From Rhizodiscina lignyota (Eukaryota): a stretch of DNA of 64,000 nt. Shown here in pieces: positions 47,145 to 60,973 of the stretch. Where the stretch lies: NCBI GenBank assembly GCA_010015805.1, contig ML978133.1, positions 682,001 through 746,000 of the forward strand, given 5' to 3'. The stretch's first letter is position 1, and the number at the start of each line of letters is the position of its first letter. The notes below the pieces were generated by a model. That model worked only from the letters and a program-made list of their open reading frames with translations. It was not told the DNA's origin and made no database searches. The position numbers and the translations under genes were made by a program.

Positions 47145-48986
47145 TCACGGCGGACGCTGTTGCTGCTGTTGCTCCAGCGCCTCCCTTTCCGCCTTCATCC
47201 TTTCTTCCCGTTCCCTCTTCGCCGCTTGCGCCGGGGCTCTCGTCTTAAGCTCTCCCGTAACGCCCTGAAGATAGGTCGGCACCTCCACCCCGCTCTTCAA
47301 AAAGAACAGCTTCAGATTCCTTGCTTTGTCTTTCAACTGCACCTGCGTCCTCTCCTTCAGCGCCTCGCTGATGCGGCCCCCAACGCCGTATAAGGCGAGG
47401 ATCTGGCTCCAGTGAGGGCCCTTTACTCGATCGAGCCCATCCATGAGAGCGCGCTCCTCCTCGGGGCTCCAGGGCTTGCGCTGGCTGGCCACCGATACTC
47501 TCCGGCTCGGTGGCGTCGACTTGCTAGTCGAAACTTTGCGAGCATTTTCGTACTGCATCAGCATAGGCGCCTTCTCGCTTCTCGACGTGCTGCTCTCAGA
47601 TCGTTCACGACCGGACGTAGTCCTGGATTTGTTCGAGAGTGACCTCTGTGGGAGCGGCTCTGGCTCCTGGTATATGGGGAACGGCGCAGAGTCTTGTTGT
47701 GGCGTGCTCTGGACAGAGACAGATCCTTGCGGATCAGGGCTGAAGATCATGCCAGAGTAGTCTGAGCTCATTGATGGGGTCGGCATGCTTGGATGGACCA
47801 CCTGTCGAAGGCAGTCGCTCAATACTCTGAGCAGGTCAACCCATTTCCACGTGGAGTAGAGTGGTCGCAGCTGAGGTGAGCTGTATTGCTCTGTCAGCAG
47901 CTGTTGTCGCCTCATGTTGACTTTCAAGGCCAAGTCCTGTTCCACAGGAGACAGTGGTGGGCTTCCGGGCCGCCGGCGTACAAGCTGACTGTGCATGTCT
48001 GCCGGGAAGTACTCGAGAAGCTCAGTCTGCGAAACCGTGCCATTATGCAGCGCTGCTATATACGCCTGCGTCTTCAGCTCTAAGAACAAGCTTGCCACAG
48101 ATTTGGTCAACGCATGTCCTTCTGGAAGGAAGACATCGAGGCATTGCTCGTGTAGCTGAGAGAACGGTATATCTCGTCCGGCAAAGATGATAACTGCAAA
48201 CGTCGCGAGGTTCGCCTTGCGTATTACGACGTTTGCCGAAGGTTCGAGGTTGAGCGATTGCGCATTGAGGAAGATGTGCTCTCGACTGACATAATACCCC
48301 TTCGTCTGGTCGAACAGAGCGACTGAAGTGTAATACGCTTGCCCACCGGGGCTATCCGGCTGGCTGGCCGTCTCGATTACCTCTTGCAAGTTGTTATGCG
48401 CAAGCGTCTCAAGTATTTGCGTAGCAAGTTTCTCGAGCACTGGCAAGCTCTGCTGTTTCAGCTGAAGGGCAGGATCGAACAGCTGCGGATCCCACGGTTC
48501 GGTCTGCGGATTGGGCTCGTTGAGGATGGGCGCATCGTGCATATAGCCTTGATACGAGGTGTTCATCGGATTCTCGAGCGCATTCTCGTAGGAGTGATAG
48601 AGCGGCTGTTGCTGGTGGTGCTGGTGGTGAGGATGCTGCTCCTGCGCAGTCTCGTGCATCAGGTAGTAGGAAGGGTCGGCGGGCGCAGGCTGGCTGTACG
48701 CCGTGTAGCCTCTGGAGTCCTGTCCAGCGAATGCGACAGCTCCATAGGCCGACTCGCCACCGTCATGCTGTGTTGTGAGATAGCTTGTGCGACGTCGCTT
48801 GTGCGGGTGCGAGTGGGCCAGCGAAGCGTCGGCTCGCCCGGCGAAGGAGTCGCTGTTGAGCGCGTGGTCGTGGATGTGGAGCGCTGGCTTCAGTCAGTAA
48901 GGCGACGCTTCAATGACCGCTCTGCACGTCTGGCGGGTGCTCTTTGGGGCGTTGAGGTCGCGATACTTACCGTCGGCGTCCATCAT
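47145..48986 (-). CDS. TBF1: Telomere-repeat-binding factor Tbf1-like (TRF-homology region + C-terminal telobox Myb); intron 48884-48970
   Basis: SLPVLEKLATQIL, IRKANLATF, LFLELKTQAYI, Myb RKPWSPEEERALMDGL..GPHWSQIL..RTQVQLKDKARNLKLFF. Confidence 0.85.
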
Positions 48987-50498
48987 CCTTAGCACTGCTA
49001 AAGGCATGTCAGGGCTGGAATTCTCGGAGAGGGTATGCCGAATTAGCCCTAATAAGGGCTTTCGCTTGCCTGCCTGCCCGCTGCGGAAGGTGAGAAATGC
49101 GGAGAGTGGACAAGCGAGCGGTAGCGCGTGGGTGTGCACAAGCACAAGGCTGAAGCTTGGTGCGATGGAACGAGGCAACGCAACGTTTGGATGCAAGGCA
49201 CCAGAGGAGATGGACGAGAGGGCTGAAGAGGGCAAGCAAGGCCGCCTGCCTGCAGCGCCGTTGTCGATGGACTGGTGGGTGCAGTGGATTTAGGATCGCT
49301 CCGGGAGGGCAGAGATTGAAGGGCCGTGACTGTATTTGATCCGCACCGCGAGTCCGCTTCCCATGCGCTTCAGCTCCCTGCGTGCCAGTGCCTGGTCTTG
49401 TTGGTCTTCAAGAGCGTGCGCCGCTCGAGCTTCTGTCGCGCTCAGATTCGCACATGCGTGCCTACGGTCTCGAGTTGAATGGGGTTACCATGCGACGCGC
49501 AACGACCGGGCTGGGGAAGATATTCCCAGAGCCGTCATTTGCCCTCGGATCCGGCCGTTTTGCCCTCTTTGGCGCTCCAGCGGAACTGATGTTTTGGTCG
49601 CATACAATTCGCAGATGTCTGACACCAATCGCGCGGGCGCCGTTATAATGTCAAAGCGGATCCGCTAGTCAACGGTGCTCAATAATGCGATGCGGGGGAG
49701 CGAGCTGGCTTCCGTAGCGCTCAGACGCGATGCTGTTGAACAGTTCGCGCGTCGAAAATGAGGCCTCGGACTTGCGAGATTCCAAGTTGAAATTCTTGAT
49801 GCTTTCTGGTGCAACATTTCGCACACTTTGATGGGACAAATTCCAGGGCAGCAGCAGCCAGCTCGACATTGTAAAGCACAGGCGCGTGTGCACGGCTCTC
49901 TCCGCTGTCTCAAGGATGGCAGGAGCGGAGCTGGAACCGTCATGCGCTTCATCAGGAAATCCTTGCGCTTGTATGTATATTAAGCATGTTAAGATCTGAT
50001 TGCGTCTCCAACTACTAAAGGTGTGTACTACACGCAATTTGAACTGCTCTGAATTTCTGACCGCTTTTCTTACGGCCGTCTGCGTCTCGAGCGCCATTTC
50101 ACTATGGGATTGCGATAGATGGTGTGAGTAGGATCCATGCGCGTTCGCCGAGTTTCACCATATGCAGCTGTGACAAAGAACACCGCCTGGCTTTTATATG
50201 ACATAGTAGTTTTGACGTCGGTGTGTATGGATACAAATACCTGCTTCAGCCATTTCATAAGCCAAAACTCTCCGGCTGAGTGGAAACCGCTGACGCATAC
50301 CAAACCGCGGCCTTCTAGAAACCCATCCGAGAGATAGCGTGCTTATTCGCGCCAGGACAGTGACAGCGTCAAAACCCAGCAAGATTGACGTAAGACACGA
50401 ACCCCGGAAATCTCAGCCTTGGGAACTGGTCTGGCGAAGCTTGACTTGAGTACGTAGCCCCTGGTAATTCTGCCTCGCGCCAAGATGCAGTTGATGCG

Positions 50499-51698
50499 TC
50501 ACGAAAAGAAGAAAGAATTGCCTTCCGTATCCTTCCTGTTCGCTTTGCTGTAGTCCTTGGTGGGGTCGAACTCTTCCCAGACGCTGGCGGGGAAAATGTG
50601 CTTGTTGCGCTCGTACCATCGCCGGTCGACCACTTTTGTGATCGTCGGATCATCGTCATAGCCTTCAAGCTCCTCTTCAGGAACCCCGACAGCTTTCTCT
50701 TTCTTCACCGGCTTGGCGAGGGGGTTATAGTTTGCCAGATCGACCTCCTCCTCCTGACCCGACTTTGGAGTCGCCGACGATCGCTCCGACGAGAAGTTGA
50801 AGAGGCGACCGCTGTACGACATGCTCTTGTTGATCATAAAGTAGTAGAACTCGTAGTGATGCGGGAGAATGATCTCGTTCCGAACGAGCATCAGATCGTC
50901 GACGCTGACTCGCGCCCACTCCCTCCGGCTCTTATCGCCTCCAACTCCAAGCTCTGCTCCCACCTTCCGCGCCTTGTCCAAGAACAGCCAGATGTAGTCG
51001 CCCTTCTTCACGCGACATCTGCCTCCAGGTACGTTTGTGCCATCGTAGAACACGAACGGGAGGACGATGTCTGTTGCCTTGACCACCTCTTGTGTTGCCA
51101 GAAACTCTTTCCTCAGCTGTTCTCTGGTCTGCGCTTCCTTGAGCAAGGCATTCTTCGTCCTGACCTTCGGCACGAACGCAATCTTCGAATTCGGACCTAA
51201 TCGCCGCTTTGCGGTCGAGGTATCGCTATCCACGTCGGAAGGGTCTGCGGATGGAGTTGCTCGCACGGCTGGGGTATTGCTCCTGGAAGTCGATGCCCCA
51301 GATGGAACATCATCCACCTCTTCGTCGTCATCTACATCAAACGATAGCTTGCCCCTTGCGATAGGCTTGCGCTTCTTCTTCGCGGGTTGAGGCGTCGAGG
51401 CACTGTACTTTGTAAATTAGCGCTGAACTTTGCGAACTGCGCCGCACCCTCTAACTTACCCGTCTGCCGGCGTTGAGACCCCAGAGGCAGGTGTAAGTCG
51501 GCCAGACGTCTGCTCCAAGGCCTCTGCGCGCCGCTTACGGAAATCAGACAGTTGCACGAGACCGACGGTCTGTTCCTTTAAGATGTCTTCGGCTGTCGCA
51601 TTGCGGGAGCTCTGCGATGTGAAGCGCGATGCGCCGACGGAGGCAGGCGTCGAGCTGCGCGACGGTGCAGCAGATGAATTCCCCGAGTTCTTGTCCAT
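50499..51698 (-). CDS. XAP5: XAP5/FAM50 family nuclear protein; intron 51403-51459
   Basis: EQTVGLVQLSDFRKRR, REQLRKEFL, PFVFYDG, VSVDDLMLV..IILPHHYEFY, TKVVDRRWYERNKHIFPASVWEEFDP. Confidence 0.92.
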
Positions 51699-52539
51699 GC
51701 TTGGAGCAAAGGCTATTTCCGTGCCTGTGGTGGTGAGATGCAGCTGGGAATGGTTATTTTAGAAGCAGCTCAAGGCTCCTGGATGGGATTTTCGATGTCT
51801 CATTCGGCAACTGCCGATATCGGCTTAGCCTGCGACAGGGGTAGCTGCAAGCTTGAGGTTGGAGACGACATGCTCAAAGAGCTACCCGCCATTCGCTCTA
51901 TCAGACAGTGTTGGATTGAGCCTGTGTGCGCTCGAATAGCTGTATGAGCCCGTTTTACACATGTGGAAGACACCCCAGAAATTTTCCGAATACCATGTGA
52001 AGTCGGAACGCATATTTCCATGTTCCAAGATCCCAGTTGGGGCTCCAATCCTCTCGCCAAAGAGGAAGGCTCACCTCTCTTGATTCTCCATCTCCCCTTG
52101 AGTCAATCGTTATCACTACGTCTTATTGCATCTCAAGCATGCTGCCACTCGCTGGATAAACGCGAGCAGTCTTTCCCTCGTCCTTGTGACTCTCCCCGCA
52201 AGGTGCACTCGCTTGTCTGCAATTTCTCCGCCCCTCTTCACAACCCCACAGTGGACGATCCTAGCTCGCAGCATCCGTACCTGATCCTTTCGTCATATCC
52301 GACCATTCACCAGGCCCGAAGCAGCAGGCGGACCCAAAAGGCTTGCTGCCCATTGCCGGCGCTGTAAGCTTGTTTACAGGAGCTTCGGACGATTGCAGCG
52401 CGAAAGACCATGGGGCTCCTCTCAACGGCCATCGCGCTATGCTACGCGGTGGCATTGACACTCTCTTATAAGCTGCCTCAGCAGCCATTGAGTCCTGCAA
52501 GCGGGGCCACTGGTAGCAATCAAGCTTCTCCTCTCCACG

Positions 52540-55500
52540 ATGGTCCGTTTCTCTCGCTTCTTCACGCTTGCCGTTTCGTGTGTGTCTTCGTTTGCGGCCA
52601 TTGCTGAGGCCGCTGTAGTTGCAAGAAAGCCTGCCATATCAATTGACCCTACGTCTGATGGGCTGCAAAATATTGTGACATGGGATGAGCACTCAATTTT
52701 TGTGCGCGGCGAGCGCGTGCTCTTCTACAGTGGAGAATTCCACCCATTCAGGTCCGCTTCCTGCTATTGTTGCATGGAATATGAAGAGTGACACTATACA
52801 GATTGCCCGTAGCAACGCTGTATTTGGACGTATTTCAAAAGATACGTGCACTAGGATACACTGGAGTCTCCTTCTATGTTGATTGGGTCAGTCAACGCGA
52901 TCTACCATGACCAGACATCAACATAACGATGCTGATATAATGGCTCCCAAAAGGCACTCCTCGAAGGCAAACCAGGGGAATATCTTGCAGAAGGAGTCTT
53001 TGACCTGAAGCCATTCTTTGATGCTGCAAAGGAGGCTGACATATATTTACTTGCTGTGAGTTAGCTTGACTGGGTAATTTGGCGATGACGAAGGCTAACC
53101 TTTGCACAGCGACCGGGCCCATACGTAAGTCTCTCGGCCATTGGCATCAGAAACCGCTGACTTTCAATTCGAAGATCAATGCAGAAGCCTCCGGTATGCA
53201 AATCGGATCATCCCACGAGAATGAGCTGACAACGGTTTAAGGTGGAGGCTTTCCAGGATGGCTCCAAAGGATCCCCGGCTACCTTCGTTCATCGAATGCG
53301 AGCTTCCTTGAAGCAACACAAAAGTACTGAATCGAGTTCGATTGATCAGATCATGTACTAATGCACATCTAGCTATGTAACGAACACTGGTCACATCATC
53401 GCCGAAGCTCAAATCACGAACGGCGGTCCTGTCATTCTGTTCCAGCCGGAGAACGAATATGCTGGAGGTGATGATGGGGGCTACTTTGCCTATGTTCGAG
53501 ACCAATGGCGCAAGACCGGCATTGTGGTCCCGCTGATAAACAACGACGTCAGTCATTCAGGACGTCAAGCACCAGGCAAGCCAGGTGGTGTAAACATCTA
53601 CGGCCACGATGGATATCCCCTTGGGTTCGATTGCGGACATCCGTTCACTTGGCCGGAAGGTCAGTTGACGGCGTATATGGGCGATTGGCATACGAAACAT
53701 CTTGAGTTCAGCCCCAAGACACCATACAGCATTGTCGAGGTACAGAAAATGCACAACAAAAAGCTCCATTATAGCTTACAATCATTTAGTTTCAAGGCGG
53801 ATCGTTTGATCCTTGGGGTGGACCTGGCTTCGAGCAATGTGCGATTCTGTTGAACATGGAATTTGAGCGCGTCTTCTACAAGGAAGATTTCAGCTTCGGC
53901 GTGACAATTTTCAACATCTACATGGTAAGGCTCCGTGAATATCAATGAGCTGAAATAAGCTAATTGCAAAAGACATATGGTGGCACGAACTGGGGTAATT
54001 TAGGACATCCAGGTAAGTACCTTACGCTGATTGATATTATAATAAGGGTAATTTAAGTGTTTAGGTGGATATACGAGTTACGATTATGCTGCAGTTATTC
54101 GCGAGGATCGCATGGTGGACCGCGAGAAGTACTCAGAAGCCAAGCTCCTCGCCAACATGCTCCAAGCCTCTCCGGCATACATCACAGCGACTCCTGGCAA
54201 TGCCACGAACGGGACACTTGCATCAACTGCAGCAATCACCGTTACTCCCCTCCACGACGAGAAGTCAGGGACGCGATTTTACGTCGTTCGACATGCCGTG
54301 TACAATACATTGGATACGACGGATTACAAGCTTACTGTTGACTCGAGCGTTGGCACGATCACGATCCCACAGCTGCAAGGAAGTCTGTCATTACACGGCC
54401 GCGACTCGAAGATTCATGTTGTCGATTACGATGTCGGCGGCACGAAGCTGCTATACAGCTCGGCCGAGATTTTCACGTGGAAGAAGTATTCATCTTCGAC
54501 CGTCCTTGTTGTGTATGGCGGACCAGGAGAGCTGCATGAAATGGCATTCAAGACGAATAAGAAACCCTCTGTCCTAGAAGGCTCTGGTATCACTTTTGGA
54601 TCGAAGAAGGGAGCCTATATCTTGAACTTTGAGACTAGTACATCGAGACGTATTGTTCAAGTTGGAAGCCTATTCGTCTATGTTCTTGGTAAGAAAACCT
54701 GGAATTTAGTATTTTATTGAGACCGCTAACAGTTTTCAGATCGTAACTCGGCATACAACTACTGGACGCTCAAGATCTCCGATGACTCCTACGCCATCGT
54801 CAAAGCCGGCTATCTGCTGCGAACCGCTTCGCTCTCATACGGTACTTTAGCATTGACTGGAGACTTCAACGCCACTACTGAGGTAGAAGTCATCGGTGCA
54901 CCGTCCTTCTCACGTTTGACGATCAACGGCAAGTCCGTTCAATCTTCATACTCCAAGAAGCACGGATCAACTTCCACCACAGTTCAGTACCAAAAGGCTA
55001 CCCCGAAGTTGCCGAACCTCAGAACGGCAACATGGCACTATATCGACAGTCTGCCAGAGATCCAGTCATCCTATTCCGATGCCGACTGGACGGTCGCCGA
55101 TCACACAAAGACAAACAACACGCACCGGAAGCCAGTACTTACCCCAAAGGTTCTTTTCTCGAGCGACTACGGCTACCACACCGGAAGTCTTATCTATCGC
55201 GGCCACTTTACTGCCAATGGAGAGGAGAAGACGCTCAAGCTCTGGACCCAAGGTGGTTCAGCGTACGGCATGTCTGCATGGCTCGGGGATACGTTTCTGG
55301 GCTCATGGAACGGCGCTGACTACGCCGAGGAATGGAACAGCACATTTACCCTACCGAACAGCATCAAGAAGGGCAAGAAGTACATCTTCACGGTTCTGAT
55401 CGATGTCACAGGTCTCGAGGAGGACTTTACGCCCGCCGAGTAAGTTCCCTTCCCCTTCACACTTCCCTCTGCCAAAATACTGACACCATCCAAGCGAACA

Positions 55501-56119
55501 AATGAAAGAACCCCGCGGCATCCTCGACTACTCTCTGTCTGGCCACCCCAAGTCCGCCATCACCTGGAAACTAACCGGTAACCTCGGCGGCGAATCCTAC
55601 CCCGACAAGACGCGCGGCCCGCTCAACGAAGGCGCTCTCTACGCCGAGCGGCAAGGCTACCACCTCCCCTCCCCACCCATCTCCTCGCCTGGCTGGAAGA
55701 CAGTCTCTGGTGGCCCGCTCAAGGGCATCACCTCCCCCGGTGTCGCCTTCTACACCACCAGCTTCAGCCTCGACATGCCGTCGGGCTACGACATCCCTCT
55801 CTCCTTCACCTTCAACAACGGCAGCGCCACGGACGCGGCAGGGCGCAGTCTCGCGTACCGCGCGATTCTGTACGTGAATGGGTACCAGTTCGGCAAGTAC
55901 GTGCATAATGTCGGCCCGCAGGACACGTACCCTGTGCCTGAGGGGATTCTGAATTACCATGGGGAGAATTGGGTTGCGGTGGCGCTGTGGGCGTTGGAGA
56001 AGGGTGGGGCGAAGTTGACGGGTTTGGACTTGGGCGCTGATGCGGTGATTGTGAGCGCACTGGAGCCGATCACAAATAGTCCGATGCCGGGCTGGGAGAA
56101 GAGAGCTGGGGCGTACTGA
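52540..56119 (+). CDS. lacA: Secreted GH35 beta-galactosidase (LacA/BgaA type), about 11 introns; possible alternative start at 52410
   Basis: [90 protein letters not shown]. Confidence 0.95.
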
Positions 56120-56230
56120 GTGAGGTTGTGAGATGCGATGCGAGAGCAGGGTTATGGCTTGATGTATATACACGTTCTCTTAAGGATAATAAAATCGTTG
56201 GACACGGCTCAAGTTGAAATACCTAAGTAC

Positions 56231-56386
56231 AAGCAGCTCTTGCACTTCCAGGTAATCGATACTACCTCTGAAAGCTTGATTCTACGTCCGTTGGAGGGTA
56301 TATGATTTGGTCGCCCGATAAGCTGTAACGCCGAAGGGAAAGCAGCTCTTGCACTTCAGACCGAGCGATACTATCTGTGAAAGCTC
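56231..56386. repeat. Imperfect direct repeat, about 46-bp units 109 bp apart
   Basis: aagcagctcttgcacttc..cgatacta.ct.tgaaagct at 56231 and 56340. Confidence 0.75.
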
Positions 56387-56746
56387 AATATCGTATTCTG
56401 TGCAGTGTGTTACACGATAGCATACTGGCGACAGCTTCGGACGCTGTATTAGCTACGGAGGGAATATGTGCTGTCTGCGTGAAAGCTGTGGCCAGCGTTT
56501 TCGTCCCCATCGAGCTAAGACGGTGTAGGCTTTGCATATATGTTGGAGTCGATGATGAATGGCCTTGGATATACCTTCTGGAAAGTCATACTGACAAAAC
56601 GAATGAGGTTCATTATACTACAGCTCATGCCAATCGCTGAAATTTCGCGCTATCTGTAGCGCGAAAGCCCACCATTGAACTTGTCGATCGACAAGTCGCG
56701 ACCATTGATCATTAGAAAACACTCTTGGGTATATCTTTCTCTCTAC

Positions 56747-58067
56747 CTAACTCGGCGCCGGTGTTCCCGCCGCACTGCTCGTCCCAGGCGTATCCGCTCC
56801 CCCAGCAATCTTCTTCTTTTTCTTCTTCTTCGCCCTCGGCAGCACTGCTGGCACCACGCCCGCCTCTCGAGGCAGAATGAGCTGCGTCCCGCACGTCAAA
56901 CATTGTCCATCTGCGAGCGGCTCGCAGAAGATGCTCAGGCACACGCTACACACGTAGCCGATGTCAACGACTCGCCGGTGGCAGAAGCATGCCGCACGGA
57001 AGTCGACTGCTGCGTCGGCGGGTGGGACTAAGGAGTGTCGTGCGTATGAGTCGGGGAGGAGTGGGTGCAGGAGGTGTAGGAGTAGGCCTTGAAGGGTGCC
57101 GCTGACTGCCGCGGCGGCTGTGTCGGCAGGCGCTTTGCCGTTTGTCTTCGTGCTGGAGTCTAATGGAGGAGTGTAGTGTGATGGGTCGAGGTATATCCCA
57201 CCGGTGCTGTCGCACGCTTGCTGCAGGAAGACGGTGTCGCCTGCGAGCTTGAGCACGTCGATCGGCACGCGCTGCCGTTGTGCGGCAAAGATGGTGTTCA
57301 TGACTGGGATGTATTGCGCTGCTAGGTCGCCGGACACGCTGAGTATGAGGATGCGGCTTGTGAGCGTCTGGCGTGAGCGAGCGGACGCTGCGTCTTGTCC
57401 GTCGACAGAGGTCATTGGCAGCGCTGCGCTGCTCACTGCGGAGGTGTCTGCGTTGAGGAGGACGGAAGGGTCGCTGGGGGACTTGAGGAGGATCTGCTTG
57501 TTGATGTATGCCAGGGCTGTGGTGAGGGCACCGGCAATCATGGTGGTGGTTCGGGATTTGAGGTCCTCCGGAGTGGTCTTAGAAATGAGATTTGTGAGGT
57601 TTGCGAGCAGTTCTTGCTCGATTATGCGGAAGGGGCGGTACTTGTTCGCATCGTCTTCGTTCGCAATGCGCTCTGCAATTCCATTGCTCATCTCAACATC
57701 GCCGTTGCTCGCAGCCTCGTTTGTGGTGCCTGAGTCTCGCCCTCCAGGCTGTGGTGGCTTCGGCGTGGGATAAAGAAATTGTGCGCATGTTGTGTGACTG
57801 GCAATGACGGCGACTTGGTTCGCATGGTTTATAGCCAGGTGAGCGTTTATGAAGACCAGAAGATTTGCGATGACTTTGGAGAGCGGAAGGGTCGAGGAGA
57901 GAATGGACCAGGCATACGGGTTGGTGTCGAGGATGATGGTTAAGAGGGACGGCGGAGGAGCTTTAAATAATCTAACTTAGCCTGAAGGATACTGCTTAGA
58001 GGAGGAGTGATGTATACATACCTTCAGACGCTGTAATAGTACGGTCTGTACCATCTATTGCGTTCAT
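56747..58067 (-). CDS. TFB4: TFIIH subunit Tfb4/p34; intron about 57961-58021
   Basis: PSLLTIILDTNP, ALTTALAYIN, SRILILSVSGD..QYIPVMN..FLQQACDSTGG, VDFRAACFCH..GYVCSVCLSIFC..CLTC. Confidence 0.94.
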
Positions 58068-58442
58068 CGTGCTCCTGGTCGTGTGCTCATCACTGTTGAT
58101 GAGTGATGGAGTCTTGCAAAGTTTGGTGTGGAATCGCTCGGTAAATGGTAAGAAAGCGTGCTTTTTATCGGAAGTGGCGGAGAATATCGGTCTCTATTAA
58201 GGATGGTAATATAAAAAATGTGTGAAGTTGAAGACGCGCTTTTCGACTCTTAACGCGCCCTGCAGTGACGTTCACGATCCCTGCAAATTTGAGCGCAACC
58301 CCACGGCGAAAGCTTCAAGGCAGCTCCGAGAGAGCTTTAATATTCAAACTCACCACCTCCACCGTCCAATTCCTCTTCGCACTCCCTCTTCTCTCTTCTC
58401 CTCCCCTACATGCTCCTATAGCGATCCCTCACGCGCTCGAAA

Positions 58443-59514
58443 ATGTCCTACTTCTTCACTACACCCGTCGACATCGACATCGTGCTCGAAGACAGCGATG
58501 AGCGCCAAACTGTAGACGTCAAGCTCGAGAAGAACCGCCGCGAGAAGGTCCCTCTGTACAAAGATGGCGAGTCGGTCAAGGGCGCGGTGACAATCCGGCC
58601 AAAGGACGGCAAGAGGCTAGAGCACACTGGCATCAAAGTGCAATTCATCGGCACCATAGGTAGGTCCCTCCCATGTTCCCTCTCCACATCAAACAATTAC
58701 ACATACCCCGAAAGACAAGATCCCCGGCCACCAACACGAAGGCTTCACAGAAATGTTCTTCGACCGCGGCAACCACTACGAGTTCCTCTCCCTCGGCCAG
58801 GAGCTCGCCGCGCCCGGCGACCTGCAGCACCCGCAGACGTTCGAGTTCAACTTCAAGAACGTCGAGAAGCAGTACGAGTCATACAACGGCATCAACGTGC
58901 GCCTGCGCTACTTTGTGCGTGTCACTGTGTCGCGGCGCATGGCGGACGTGACGCGGGAGAAGGACATCTGGGTGTACAGCTACCGAGTCTCGCCCGAGAC
59001 GAACGCGAGCATCAAGATGGACGTTGGTATTGAGGATTGCCTACACATCGAGTTCGAGTACAGCAAGAGCAAGTACCACCTCAAGGATGTGATTGTGGGG
59101 AGGATCTACTTCTTGCTGGTGAGGTTGAAAATCAAGCACATGGAGCTAAGCATCATACGCCGGGAGACGACGGGCGCCGCGCCGAATCAGTACAATGAGA
59201 GTGAGACGCTGGTGCGGTTCGAGGTGAGTTCCTTTTGTTGTATGTGACGATAAATGGGTGGGGACACTGACGGGTATCAGATAATGGATGGCTCGCCGTC
59301 AAGAGGAGAGACGATACCCATCAGACTGTTTCTCGGCGGCTTTGACCTCACCCCTACGTTCCGCGAAGTCAACAAGAAGTTCTCGACAAGGTACTACCTC
59401 AGCCTCGTGCTCATCGACGAAGACGCGCGAAGATATTTCAAGCAGTCGGAGATCGTGCTCTTCCGGCAACCACCAGAGGGCGTGCTCCCCCCATCAGACT
59501 CCAAGTCCGCATAG
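58443..59514 (+). CDS. VPS26: Retromer subunit Vps26; introns about 58660-58750 and 59224-59280
   Basis: KRLEHTGIKVQFIG, VEKQYESYNGINVRLRYF, IKMDVGIEDCLHIEFEY, MDGSPSRGETIPIRLFL. Confidence 0.96.
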
Positions 59515-60973
59515 TCTGTTTCTGCTCTGCAAAGTTCGGCGTGGGTGGCGTTGGTTTTGTGCATAAAGCATGGGTGGTCAAAGGCGCAATGATACCATAT
59601 CTTGAGGATGGGAGAACAATTGCATCCTTGTTAATATACTTCGGATGGGTACGCCGATTATGGCCTTCTGCGCGAATAGAATAAGTTTTCTCGAGCTGAG
59701 TATCCACTTTAAGTACGGATGAGTATGCATCCAGGTTGACTTCCAGACATGATATCACTGGCGCTGAAGAAAGCAATGTTGCACTTATCTTCAAGCTCTC
59801 GACTTTGAATTGCGAAGGCGATTATAGCTTCTACCCAAAAAGAGGATGTTCATCGGAGCTGAGTATTTCCCTGGAACAGAGACAAACGCATTCTCCCAGA
59901 GGATCTCCACAAGGGATATCACTTCCCTGGAAGAAAGGAACATCGCATATACCTAGAAGCTTTCGACAACAGTTCACTTGCTGTGAAGAGCGTGACCCAC
60001 CATATACTGTATACCTTCACTGACAGTGTCGCCTCTCCCAAAGAACAGAAAGTACTAAATATCTATCAATTTTTGAGCAGTCTCTGTTAACGAGCCCTTA
60101 CAATTCGCATCCACCTCACCTTCAAATATTCGGTCATCACTGTTATCTTGGAGTTTCTTCTACAAGTCTCAGGCACGGAGCCTCGCTCGTACTGGACAGG
60201 GCATTGGTACAGGTAGTCCTGGTAGTGGTAGGGTTTTTGCTGGTGCTAAAATTGCAGCGCATATCGACACTGCAATTGGCTCGAGTACTGAAATGCCTGC
60301 ATTTCGGATCCCAAGCCCACTCTCATCGAGTCACTCCTGGGGAAAGACACAGTATGAGCATGGATGTATGAGTCATTAGGTATCTATTCTTTCTACGGAG
60401 TATACACGCCTTTTAGAACCATGAAAAGGATAAGAAGAAAGAAGAATGTAGAACTCCATCTAGCCAGTAAAGCCATCAAACTCTCAGCCGTCATGAGAAA
60501 CCAGCCCTTTTAGGAAACTCAGCATCGTTACACAGGAGACTCTGTGCGCCTGTATGAGGAGCCATGCCGTGTTCGGGTAAAGCAGAAATGTCATGCTCTC
60601 ATTAGGTCGTCGTAAGCAATCTCAGGCCTGTCATTAATTAGAGACCATTAGATAGTCCTCGTTGAACTCCATAGAATGCCGAATGCACACAACTCCATGA
60701 CAAAGGGAAAGGCCGAGATTTGTATCTCGATCATCAGGTGGAGGGGAGAGCTTTTCAGTGGAAGATTTCGGAAGTGCCCGAGCCGCAGATTAATTAATCA
60801 TTAGGAAGGAAGGGTGTCTCGTCGAAGGATAGCTGTAGGTCTGGTATGTATCAGCAACAATCCATTATCTGAGAGGAGGAAACCGACATACCGTCAGAAG
60901 CACCCGAGCAGCAATCAAGCAAGCAGTAGATGACTCTCAACATATGCTTCGGGACTGACTTGAGTAAGGACCA

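Follow-up and report, generated by a model that had tools for sequence, protein, structure and literature searches.

RESULTS

A beta-galactosidase gene with two candidate N termini

The window analyzed here is a stretch of 64,000 nucleotides (nt) of Rhizodiscina lignyota DNA (contig ML978133.1, positions 682,001 to 746,000), and all positions below refer to it. Positions 52540 to 56119 of its forward strand hold an intact coding sequence for a LacA-type beta-galactosidase of family GH35, 1,001 amino acids (aa) long, hereafter form B. Upstream, a 65-codon frame begins with the ATG at 52410 (context ACC-ATG-G) and ends in a TGA at 52605 to 52607; the ATG at 52540 stands in the context ACG-ATG-G (A at −3 and G at +4 in both). 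Excision of 52543 to 52618 yields a stop-free frame of 1,019 aa, hereafter form A, with the same 11 downstream introns. The initial annotation had proposed this arrangement, and its coordinates were all verified: the upstream frame is out of frame with the enzyme, removal of the 76 nt (GTCCGT ... GCTGAG ... TAG) joins the two through 1,019 codons with no stop, and the donor GTCCGT resembles the donor of the next intron (GTCCGC, at 52752). Both frames are intact, and both open with a scored signal peptide. Judged from its sequence, the additional 5′ segment stands out from chance but is not conserved, and it is a candidate for a second N terminus, possibly a vacuolar one. The features concerned are as follows.

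52410..52542, forward strand: candidate exon A, 44 codons plus 1 nt; signal peptide and short pro-region rich in S, G, A, P, and Q
52410..52466, forward strand: predicted signal peptide A, 19 aa; 14.7 bits in our own model
52479..52490, forward strand: QQPL, residues 24 to 27 of form A; QXX-phi motif, 5 residues past the predicted cleavage
52540..52623, forward strand: signal peptide B, of the apparently ancestral type; 20.7 bits; cleavage at about residues 24 to 28, uncertain
52543..52618, forward strand: candidate intron 1 of 76 nt, in phase 1 for form A; most of signal peptide B is encoded here
52603..52608, forward strand: GCTGAG, a candidate branch site with its A at 52607; the TGA within it ends the unspliced A frame
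52752..52801, 52887..52953, 53056..53109, 53125..53174, 53194..53241, and 53324..53372, forward strand: form B introns 1 to 6
53740..53789, 53925..53972, 54013..54064, 54689..54739, and 55440..55494, forward strand: form B introns 7 to 11

In the encoded enzyme, PF01301, PF10435, PF13363, and PF13364 all scored over their curated cutoffs, and five distinct Protein Data Bank (PDB) sequences matched it over the full length (E = 0). The glutamate motifs QPENEY (at 196) and EFQGG (at 294) both align with the solved enzymes; we take ENEY and EFQGG to be the catalytic glutamate motifs of a GH35 enzyme. A protein-to-DNA spliced aligner recovered 11 of the 11 downstream introns with two orthologous proteins. 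By homology, the gene is an ordinary member of the LacA family, and the genome holds four GH35 paralogs. Form B is letter-identical to a public record (P0003, source label Rhizodiscina lignyota), which is possibly this gene's own annotation and hence not independent evidence.

Both N termini score as signal peptides

Signal peptides were scored with a small n/h/c model of our own, distinct from SignalP, that was trained on the N termini of 172 relatives. The upstream frame, which had been described as resembling a signal peptide, scored 14.7 bits (between the 10th and 25th percentiles of the training set), and the frame from 52540, taken to open a second complete signal peptide, scored 20.7 bits, the ortholog median; both descriptions hold in this model. 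As references from the same genome, carboxypeptidase Y (CPY) scored 15.0 bits and Npc2 13.9 bits. In frame, stop-free, and at the ortholog median, signal peptide B does not look decayed.

The null for these scores was order-3 Markov DNA with 2,062,232 ATG frames, of which 312 (about 1 in 6,600) reached at least 14.7 bits and 155 did so with a purine at −3. Among 27,941 real ATGs in 800 kb of the genome, 15 combined such a score with a purine at −3, where about 2 were expected. Of the 155 null frames that had a purine at −3, 19 contained a QXX-phi motif; at a looser cut, QxPL was present in 2 of 584. Elsewhere in the window, further ATG frames score as signal peptides at 12.5 to 20.6 bits: 30162 on the forward strand and 46087, 32747, and 38219 on the reverse strand.

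Around the upstream ATG lie the following noncoding features.

52020..52300, forward strand: CT-rich stretch, pyrimidine 0.57 to 0.68 in 40-nt bins; possible core promoter or leader
52142..52409, forward strand: ATG-free leader; 271 nt separate ATG 52410 from the closest ATG upstream of it
52467..52472, forward strand: TATAAG, 73 nt before ATG 52540; possible TATA of a second (form B) promoter
52501..52506, forward strand: SYGGRG match, CreA type, between TATAAG and ATG 52540; weak

An ATG-free window of 270 nt was found in 1.9% of 1,908 noncoding windows. The 271-nt ATG-free leader is longer than those of 17 of 17 probable secreted genes (maximum, 249) and of 33 of 33 ortholog loci (maximum, 238). 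SYGGRG, the CreA-type consensus, has six matches in 870 nt, so a single match is weak.

The candidate intron scores within the range of real introns

Donor, branch, and acceptor matrices were derived from 171 homology-defined introns of 42 to 90 nt, taken from 66 of 80 ortholog loci after removal of duplicates and of introns before residue 25. With its GT donor, YAG acceptor, and branch A at typical spacing, the candidate intron scored within the range of real introns (18.4 bits): 37 of the 171 reference introns scored equal or lower, and it outscored 5 of the 11 certain introns of its own gene and 7 of 19 paralog introns (one probably an aligner artifact). GTCCGT is the donor in 4 of the reference introns. 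The branch had been called weak; CTGAG is indeed rare, serving in 2 of the 171, but the distance of its A from the 3′ end, 12 nt, is the modal spacing (50 of 171). Among 20 in-frame GT..AG routes from exon A, 52543 to 52618 is the best. The 19 other routes into the enzyme frame were rejected, the highest of them (52513 to 52618) at 13.6 bits.

How often such a score arises depends on the control. None of 10,142 exonic decoy GT..AG pairs reached 18.4 bits, a figure that overstates rarity; the density in Markov DNA is the fairest null, and there 167 of 136,664 pairs reached it, or one per 4.8 kb. In real DNA, 389 of 137,873 pairs did so. Signal-peptide regions used as controls did not reach 18.4 bits in 29 orthologs or in 27 cases from the same genome (best, 11.8 bits). 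When the B N terminus was recoded synonymously, 377 of 20,000 versions reached the score, 335 of them in frame. No Rfam match was found for structured RNA in 50000 to 58000, and folding of 52530 to 52630 gave z = 0.52. The single sequencing run matching the region (X1) spans it as an unspliced contig, which may be the source of this DNA and so speaks neither for splicing nor against it.

A putative Vps10 motif follows signal peptide A

Vps10 binds QXX-phi (PMC8859911, PMC5264500). Form A carries QQPL at residues 24 to 27, with cleavage predicted after residue 19. The genome encodes Vps10 (two PF15902 domains on G000:C5), and its own CPY and Npc2 have QXX-phi after the signal peptide; the motif is absent from that position in its two subtilisin-type genes. 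Of the remaining 68 genomic sites that code for PQQPL, none follows a signal peptide, and the 10 of these with an in-frame Met at the right distance score 0.1 at best.

A KR or RR pair stands just before the fold (VTWD) in 93 of 118 relatives and is absent here, where RK remains, a difference read in light of the cleavage-site preference of Kex2. In either form, the mature N terminus is probably longer as this site is lost (form B residues 30 to 45, 52627 to 52674). Because 25 of the 118 relatives also lack KR/RR, the missing site offers modest support only. In solved relatives the fold begins at about residue 42 of form B (1TG7), so the QQPL motif would be exposed. The initial annotation had suggested a vacuolar and a secreted isoform; a QXX-phi motif past the cleavage site and a Vps10 in the genome speak for this, whereas the destination is read from four residues. 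Overall, we regard it as unlikely that start-site choice and splicing switch the destination of one enzyme between vacuole and secretion.

A two-form model

The reading we prefer, tentatively and at a little under an even chance, is a lineage-specific second N terminus on an ordinary secreted GH35 beta-galactosidase, with both forms in use. That exon A is really spliced, whether to give both forms or form A alone, seems slightly better than a toss-up. Under the two-form model, transcripts that begin within or downstream of the CT-rich stretch around 52200 to 52300 would initiate at ATG 52410 and splice out 52543 to 52618; splicing would delete the ancestral signal peptide and give a 1,019-aa precursor with QQPL just past the cleavage site. 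Transcripts starting at about 52475 to 52530, behind TATAAG 52467, would keep the weak intron and initiate at ATG 52540, giving the ancestral 1,001-aa secreted form. In the late Golgi, Vps10 would bind QQPL and send form A to the vacuole, which we put at about an even chance if the rest holds, and the lost KR site would keep QQPL attached long enough for sorting. A newly recruited exon with a Vps10 motif would thus be set against an ancestral signal peptide that doubles as an intron.

Alternative transcription start or intron retention had been offered as the source of the two isoforms. Retention is an unpromising source of form B, since the A frame begins in a strong context, runs across ATG 52540, and ends before the 11 introns; form B would therefore need a second start site, possibly behind TATAAG 52467. 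Messages with a stop upstream of introns undergo decay. Decay driven by upstream open reading frames (uORFs) in fungi is described in the abstract of PMC7049704.

The claim of two isoforms survives in part. The signal peptide, the in-frame intron, QXX-phi, Vps10, the KR loss, and the 271-nt ATG-free leader together fit it better than chance per gene, whereas conservation is missing at the distances reachable and retention alone serves form B poorly. Multiplied, the chance rates of the signal peptide and the in-frame intron come to 2e-6 to 5e-6 per secreted gene, and to 3e-7 to 7e-7 with QXX-phi included; these products are optimistic, since thresholds were set at the observed values and the models were self-built.

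Conservation, composition, and rival explanations

Several results weigh against a second N terminus in use, and we gather them here. The first concern conservation. The N-terminus comparison covered the best 120 full-length hits, 118 of them scorable besides P0003. The distance from the start to VTWD has a median of 44 residues in these 118, against 45 in form B and 63 in form A; the four relatives with at least 55 residues there carry B-type N termini extended in frame, and Qx[PV]L occurs in the pre-region of one relative alone, at its far end. None of the 118, including P0216 from the same order, has an A-like N terminus. Because form B matches the N-terminus type of the family and no relative is A-like, the form B N terminus is, on this comparison, ancestral. 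Of 80 metagenome loci, 33 were kept as fungal and nonredundant, with a recognizable start and at least 300 nt upstream, and none of the 33 has a separate upstream signal-peptide ORF. They hold 349 upstream ATGs, one of which scores 15.4 bits (it lies 9 nt up in the enzyme's frame and gives the same peptide) and 348 of which fall below 12. No intron-like signal region was seen among 29 orthologs. Conservation of the upstream frame, to which the initial annotation had looked, was thus seen in 0 of 33 loci and 0 of 118 relatives at the distances reachable. All of these relatives are distant (best proteins, about 61 to 62% identical; best locus segments, about 42 to 75%), so what the comparison excludes is a feature of the whole family; one confined to a lineage is not excluded by it.

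Exon A itself has no clear homolog. The search of its own genome returned one weak hit with a stop (E = 0.07), and none was found in a 5.8-billion set, a set of 50% representatives, or the ESM Atlas; the queries are short and of low complexity, so these blanks are weak. A repeat or duplicate origin of 51700 to 52545 was excluded, the region being single copy, and the four GH35 paralogs have no separate second upstream signal ORF, with one signal peptide each where found. In codon usage, exon A scores −3.3, the 7th percentile of 384 coding windows; 56% of 111 stop-free noncoding windows match or beat it, and all 17 probable secreted first exons in a set chosen by eye score higher. The B N terminus itself scores just 0.4 to 1.2. 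The candidate intron, at 76 nt and 57% GC, stands apart from the other 11 (48 to 67 nt, 29 to 49%), with 7 of the 171 reference introns as long and 6 as GC rich, although a signal peptide has to be encoded in it as well. Across the genome, sites coding for PQQPL show no enrichment (69 versus 70 in the control), the public model starts at ATG 52540, and the short transcript, if spliced, leads to a dead end of about 20 codons.

Chance is a serious contender, which we place somewhat short of even. The gene would then be a plain LacA from 52540, with 52410 to 52539 as promoter or leader and the upstream frame either nonfunctional or a weakly repressive uORF. Its intron signals would stem from codons for Met-Val-Arg, Ala-Glu, and Val-Val; Met-Val-Arg plus the Kozak G alone yields a donor-like ATG/GT. 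The B N terminus is of the family type and equals P0003, and P0111, the one of the two spliced-aligned orthologs whose N terminus aligned, aligns as exon within the candidate intron, beginning at 52560. TATAAG 52467 and the CT-rich run before the ATG can be read as promoter and leader. There is no conservation at the distances reached, no exon A homolog in the sets searched, and no clear codon bias of a coding type. An intron-like element of equal score every 4.8 kb in Markov DNA shows that such elements arise by chance, and with about 250,000 windows surveyed, we infer that at looser thresholds about one coincidence of this sort is plausible. Chance, however, needs four rare things together: a signal peptide in strong Kozak context, an in-frame intron removing exactly the other signal peptide, QxPL right past the cleavage site, and a 271-nt ATG-free leader.

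That form A is the sole product is improbable. Here the ancestral signal peptide would have been intronized recently, following recruitment of a new 5′ exon, ATG 52540 would be a relic, and the public model would need correction. In its favor, the candidate intron has a score in line with those of the real introns of the gene, no ATG precedes ATG 52410 in its long, CT-rich leader, and high GC and extra length would fit a young, exon-derived intron. Against it, signal peptide B (20.7 bits, in frame, with the Kozak A at −3) shows no decay, the spacing between TATAAG and ATG 52540 is suitable for a promoter, and the public model uses B. Very improbable is a third alternative, that exon A is the leftover 5′ end of a lost or rearranged secretory or vacuolar gene, unused or acting as a regulatory uORF: it resembles a real signal peptide with a pro-region, and the absence of XAP5 or Tfb4 neighbors from all 66 ortholog loci permits a lineage-specific rearrangement, but the genome holds no parent or second copy at the protein or DNA level, and the in-frame intron would go unexplained.

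Other features of the locus

Intron 52752 to 52801 has a poor branch (AGTGAC) and, at 11.1 bits, the lowest score of the gene's 11 certain introns; if it is retained, the frame stops at 52789 to 52791. Its splicing may therefore be regulated or leaky. The first 600 residues are interrupted by 10 introns, the highest count among the LacA orthologs compared, the ortholog loci having 0 to 8 (e.g., L014, L015, and L028). Within 47145 to 59566, the neighbors are a TRF/Myb telomere-binding factor, XAP5/FAM50, and Tfb4 on the reverse strand and Vps26 on the forward strand; XAP5/FAM50 is divergent, about 700 nt from ATG 52410, and Tfb4 is convergent. A secreted glycosidase is thus placed amid housekeeping genes.

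DISCUSSION

If the two-form model is true, this gene would hold a compact fork of the secretory pathway, with the choice between vacuole and secretion made by RNA, and a signal peptide would be turning into an intron without having lost its first role. Surveys of isoforms that record a signal peptide as present or absent would miss such a case, because both forms have one. The locus would also offer a natural test of QXX-phi/Vps10 sorting in Dothideomycetes. Should the model be wrong, what is left is an ordinary LacA gene preceded by a uORF.

Alternative N termini that change protein location are well known in fungi, and splicing changes targeting in yeast PTC7. Yeast SUC2 gives secreted and cytosolic invertase, the short form being without a signal peptide, and mammalian IL-15 has long and short signal peptides. 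In SUC2 and IL-15, as in the model proposed here, one gene has two N termini and two destinations, although the exon layouts differ from that of this gene. Human GLB1 is a GH35 enzyme that works in a lytic compartment, with sorting not based on Vps10 and QXX-phi.

Further parallels come from filamentous fungi and Cryptococcus. In Cryptococcus and Neurospora, in-frame AUG pairs and alternative start sites give differently targeted isoforms (PMC7049704). Two AUGs, two destinations, and sometimes alternative start sites recall the model here (PMC7049704); there, in-frame extensions add or drop a mitochondrial signal, whereas the two AUGs of this gene lie in different frames, each opening a signal peptide. 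In Schizophyllum commune, retention of a 5′ intron loses a targeting signal (PMC5034255), and in Cladosporium fulvum, splicing lengthens, gains, or loses signal peptides, including that of Ecp5 (PMC11694984). Table S15 of the latter study lists two GH35 genes with signal-peptide variation, without coordinates, and for CLAFUR5_04709 both Race 5 isoforms are labeled secreted (PMC11694984). As in our model, retention or removal of a 5′ intron alters the targeting sequence in these two species; in the cases described, one signal is lengthened, gained, or lost, whereas here one complete signal peptide would be swapped for another. Our literature search, whose coverage left out most subscription papers, found no swap of two complete signal peptides, no intronized fungal signal peptide, and no vacuolar fungal GH35 enzyme.

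In yeast CPY (QRPL) and other Vps10 cargoes, QXX-phi directly follows the signal peptide, as in form A (PMC8859911, PMC5264500); the motif there is fixed in one precursor, whereas here it would sit on an optional exon. The fungal GH35 enzymes LacA and Bga1 (PDB 4IUG, 1TG7, 5IFP, and 3OG2) have the same four Pfam domains as this gene, and, like form B, these relatives begin with a single signal peptide and a short spacer. They have one N terminus, whereas this gene possibly has a second, spliced-on N terminus.

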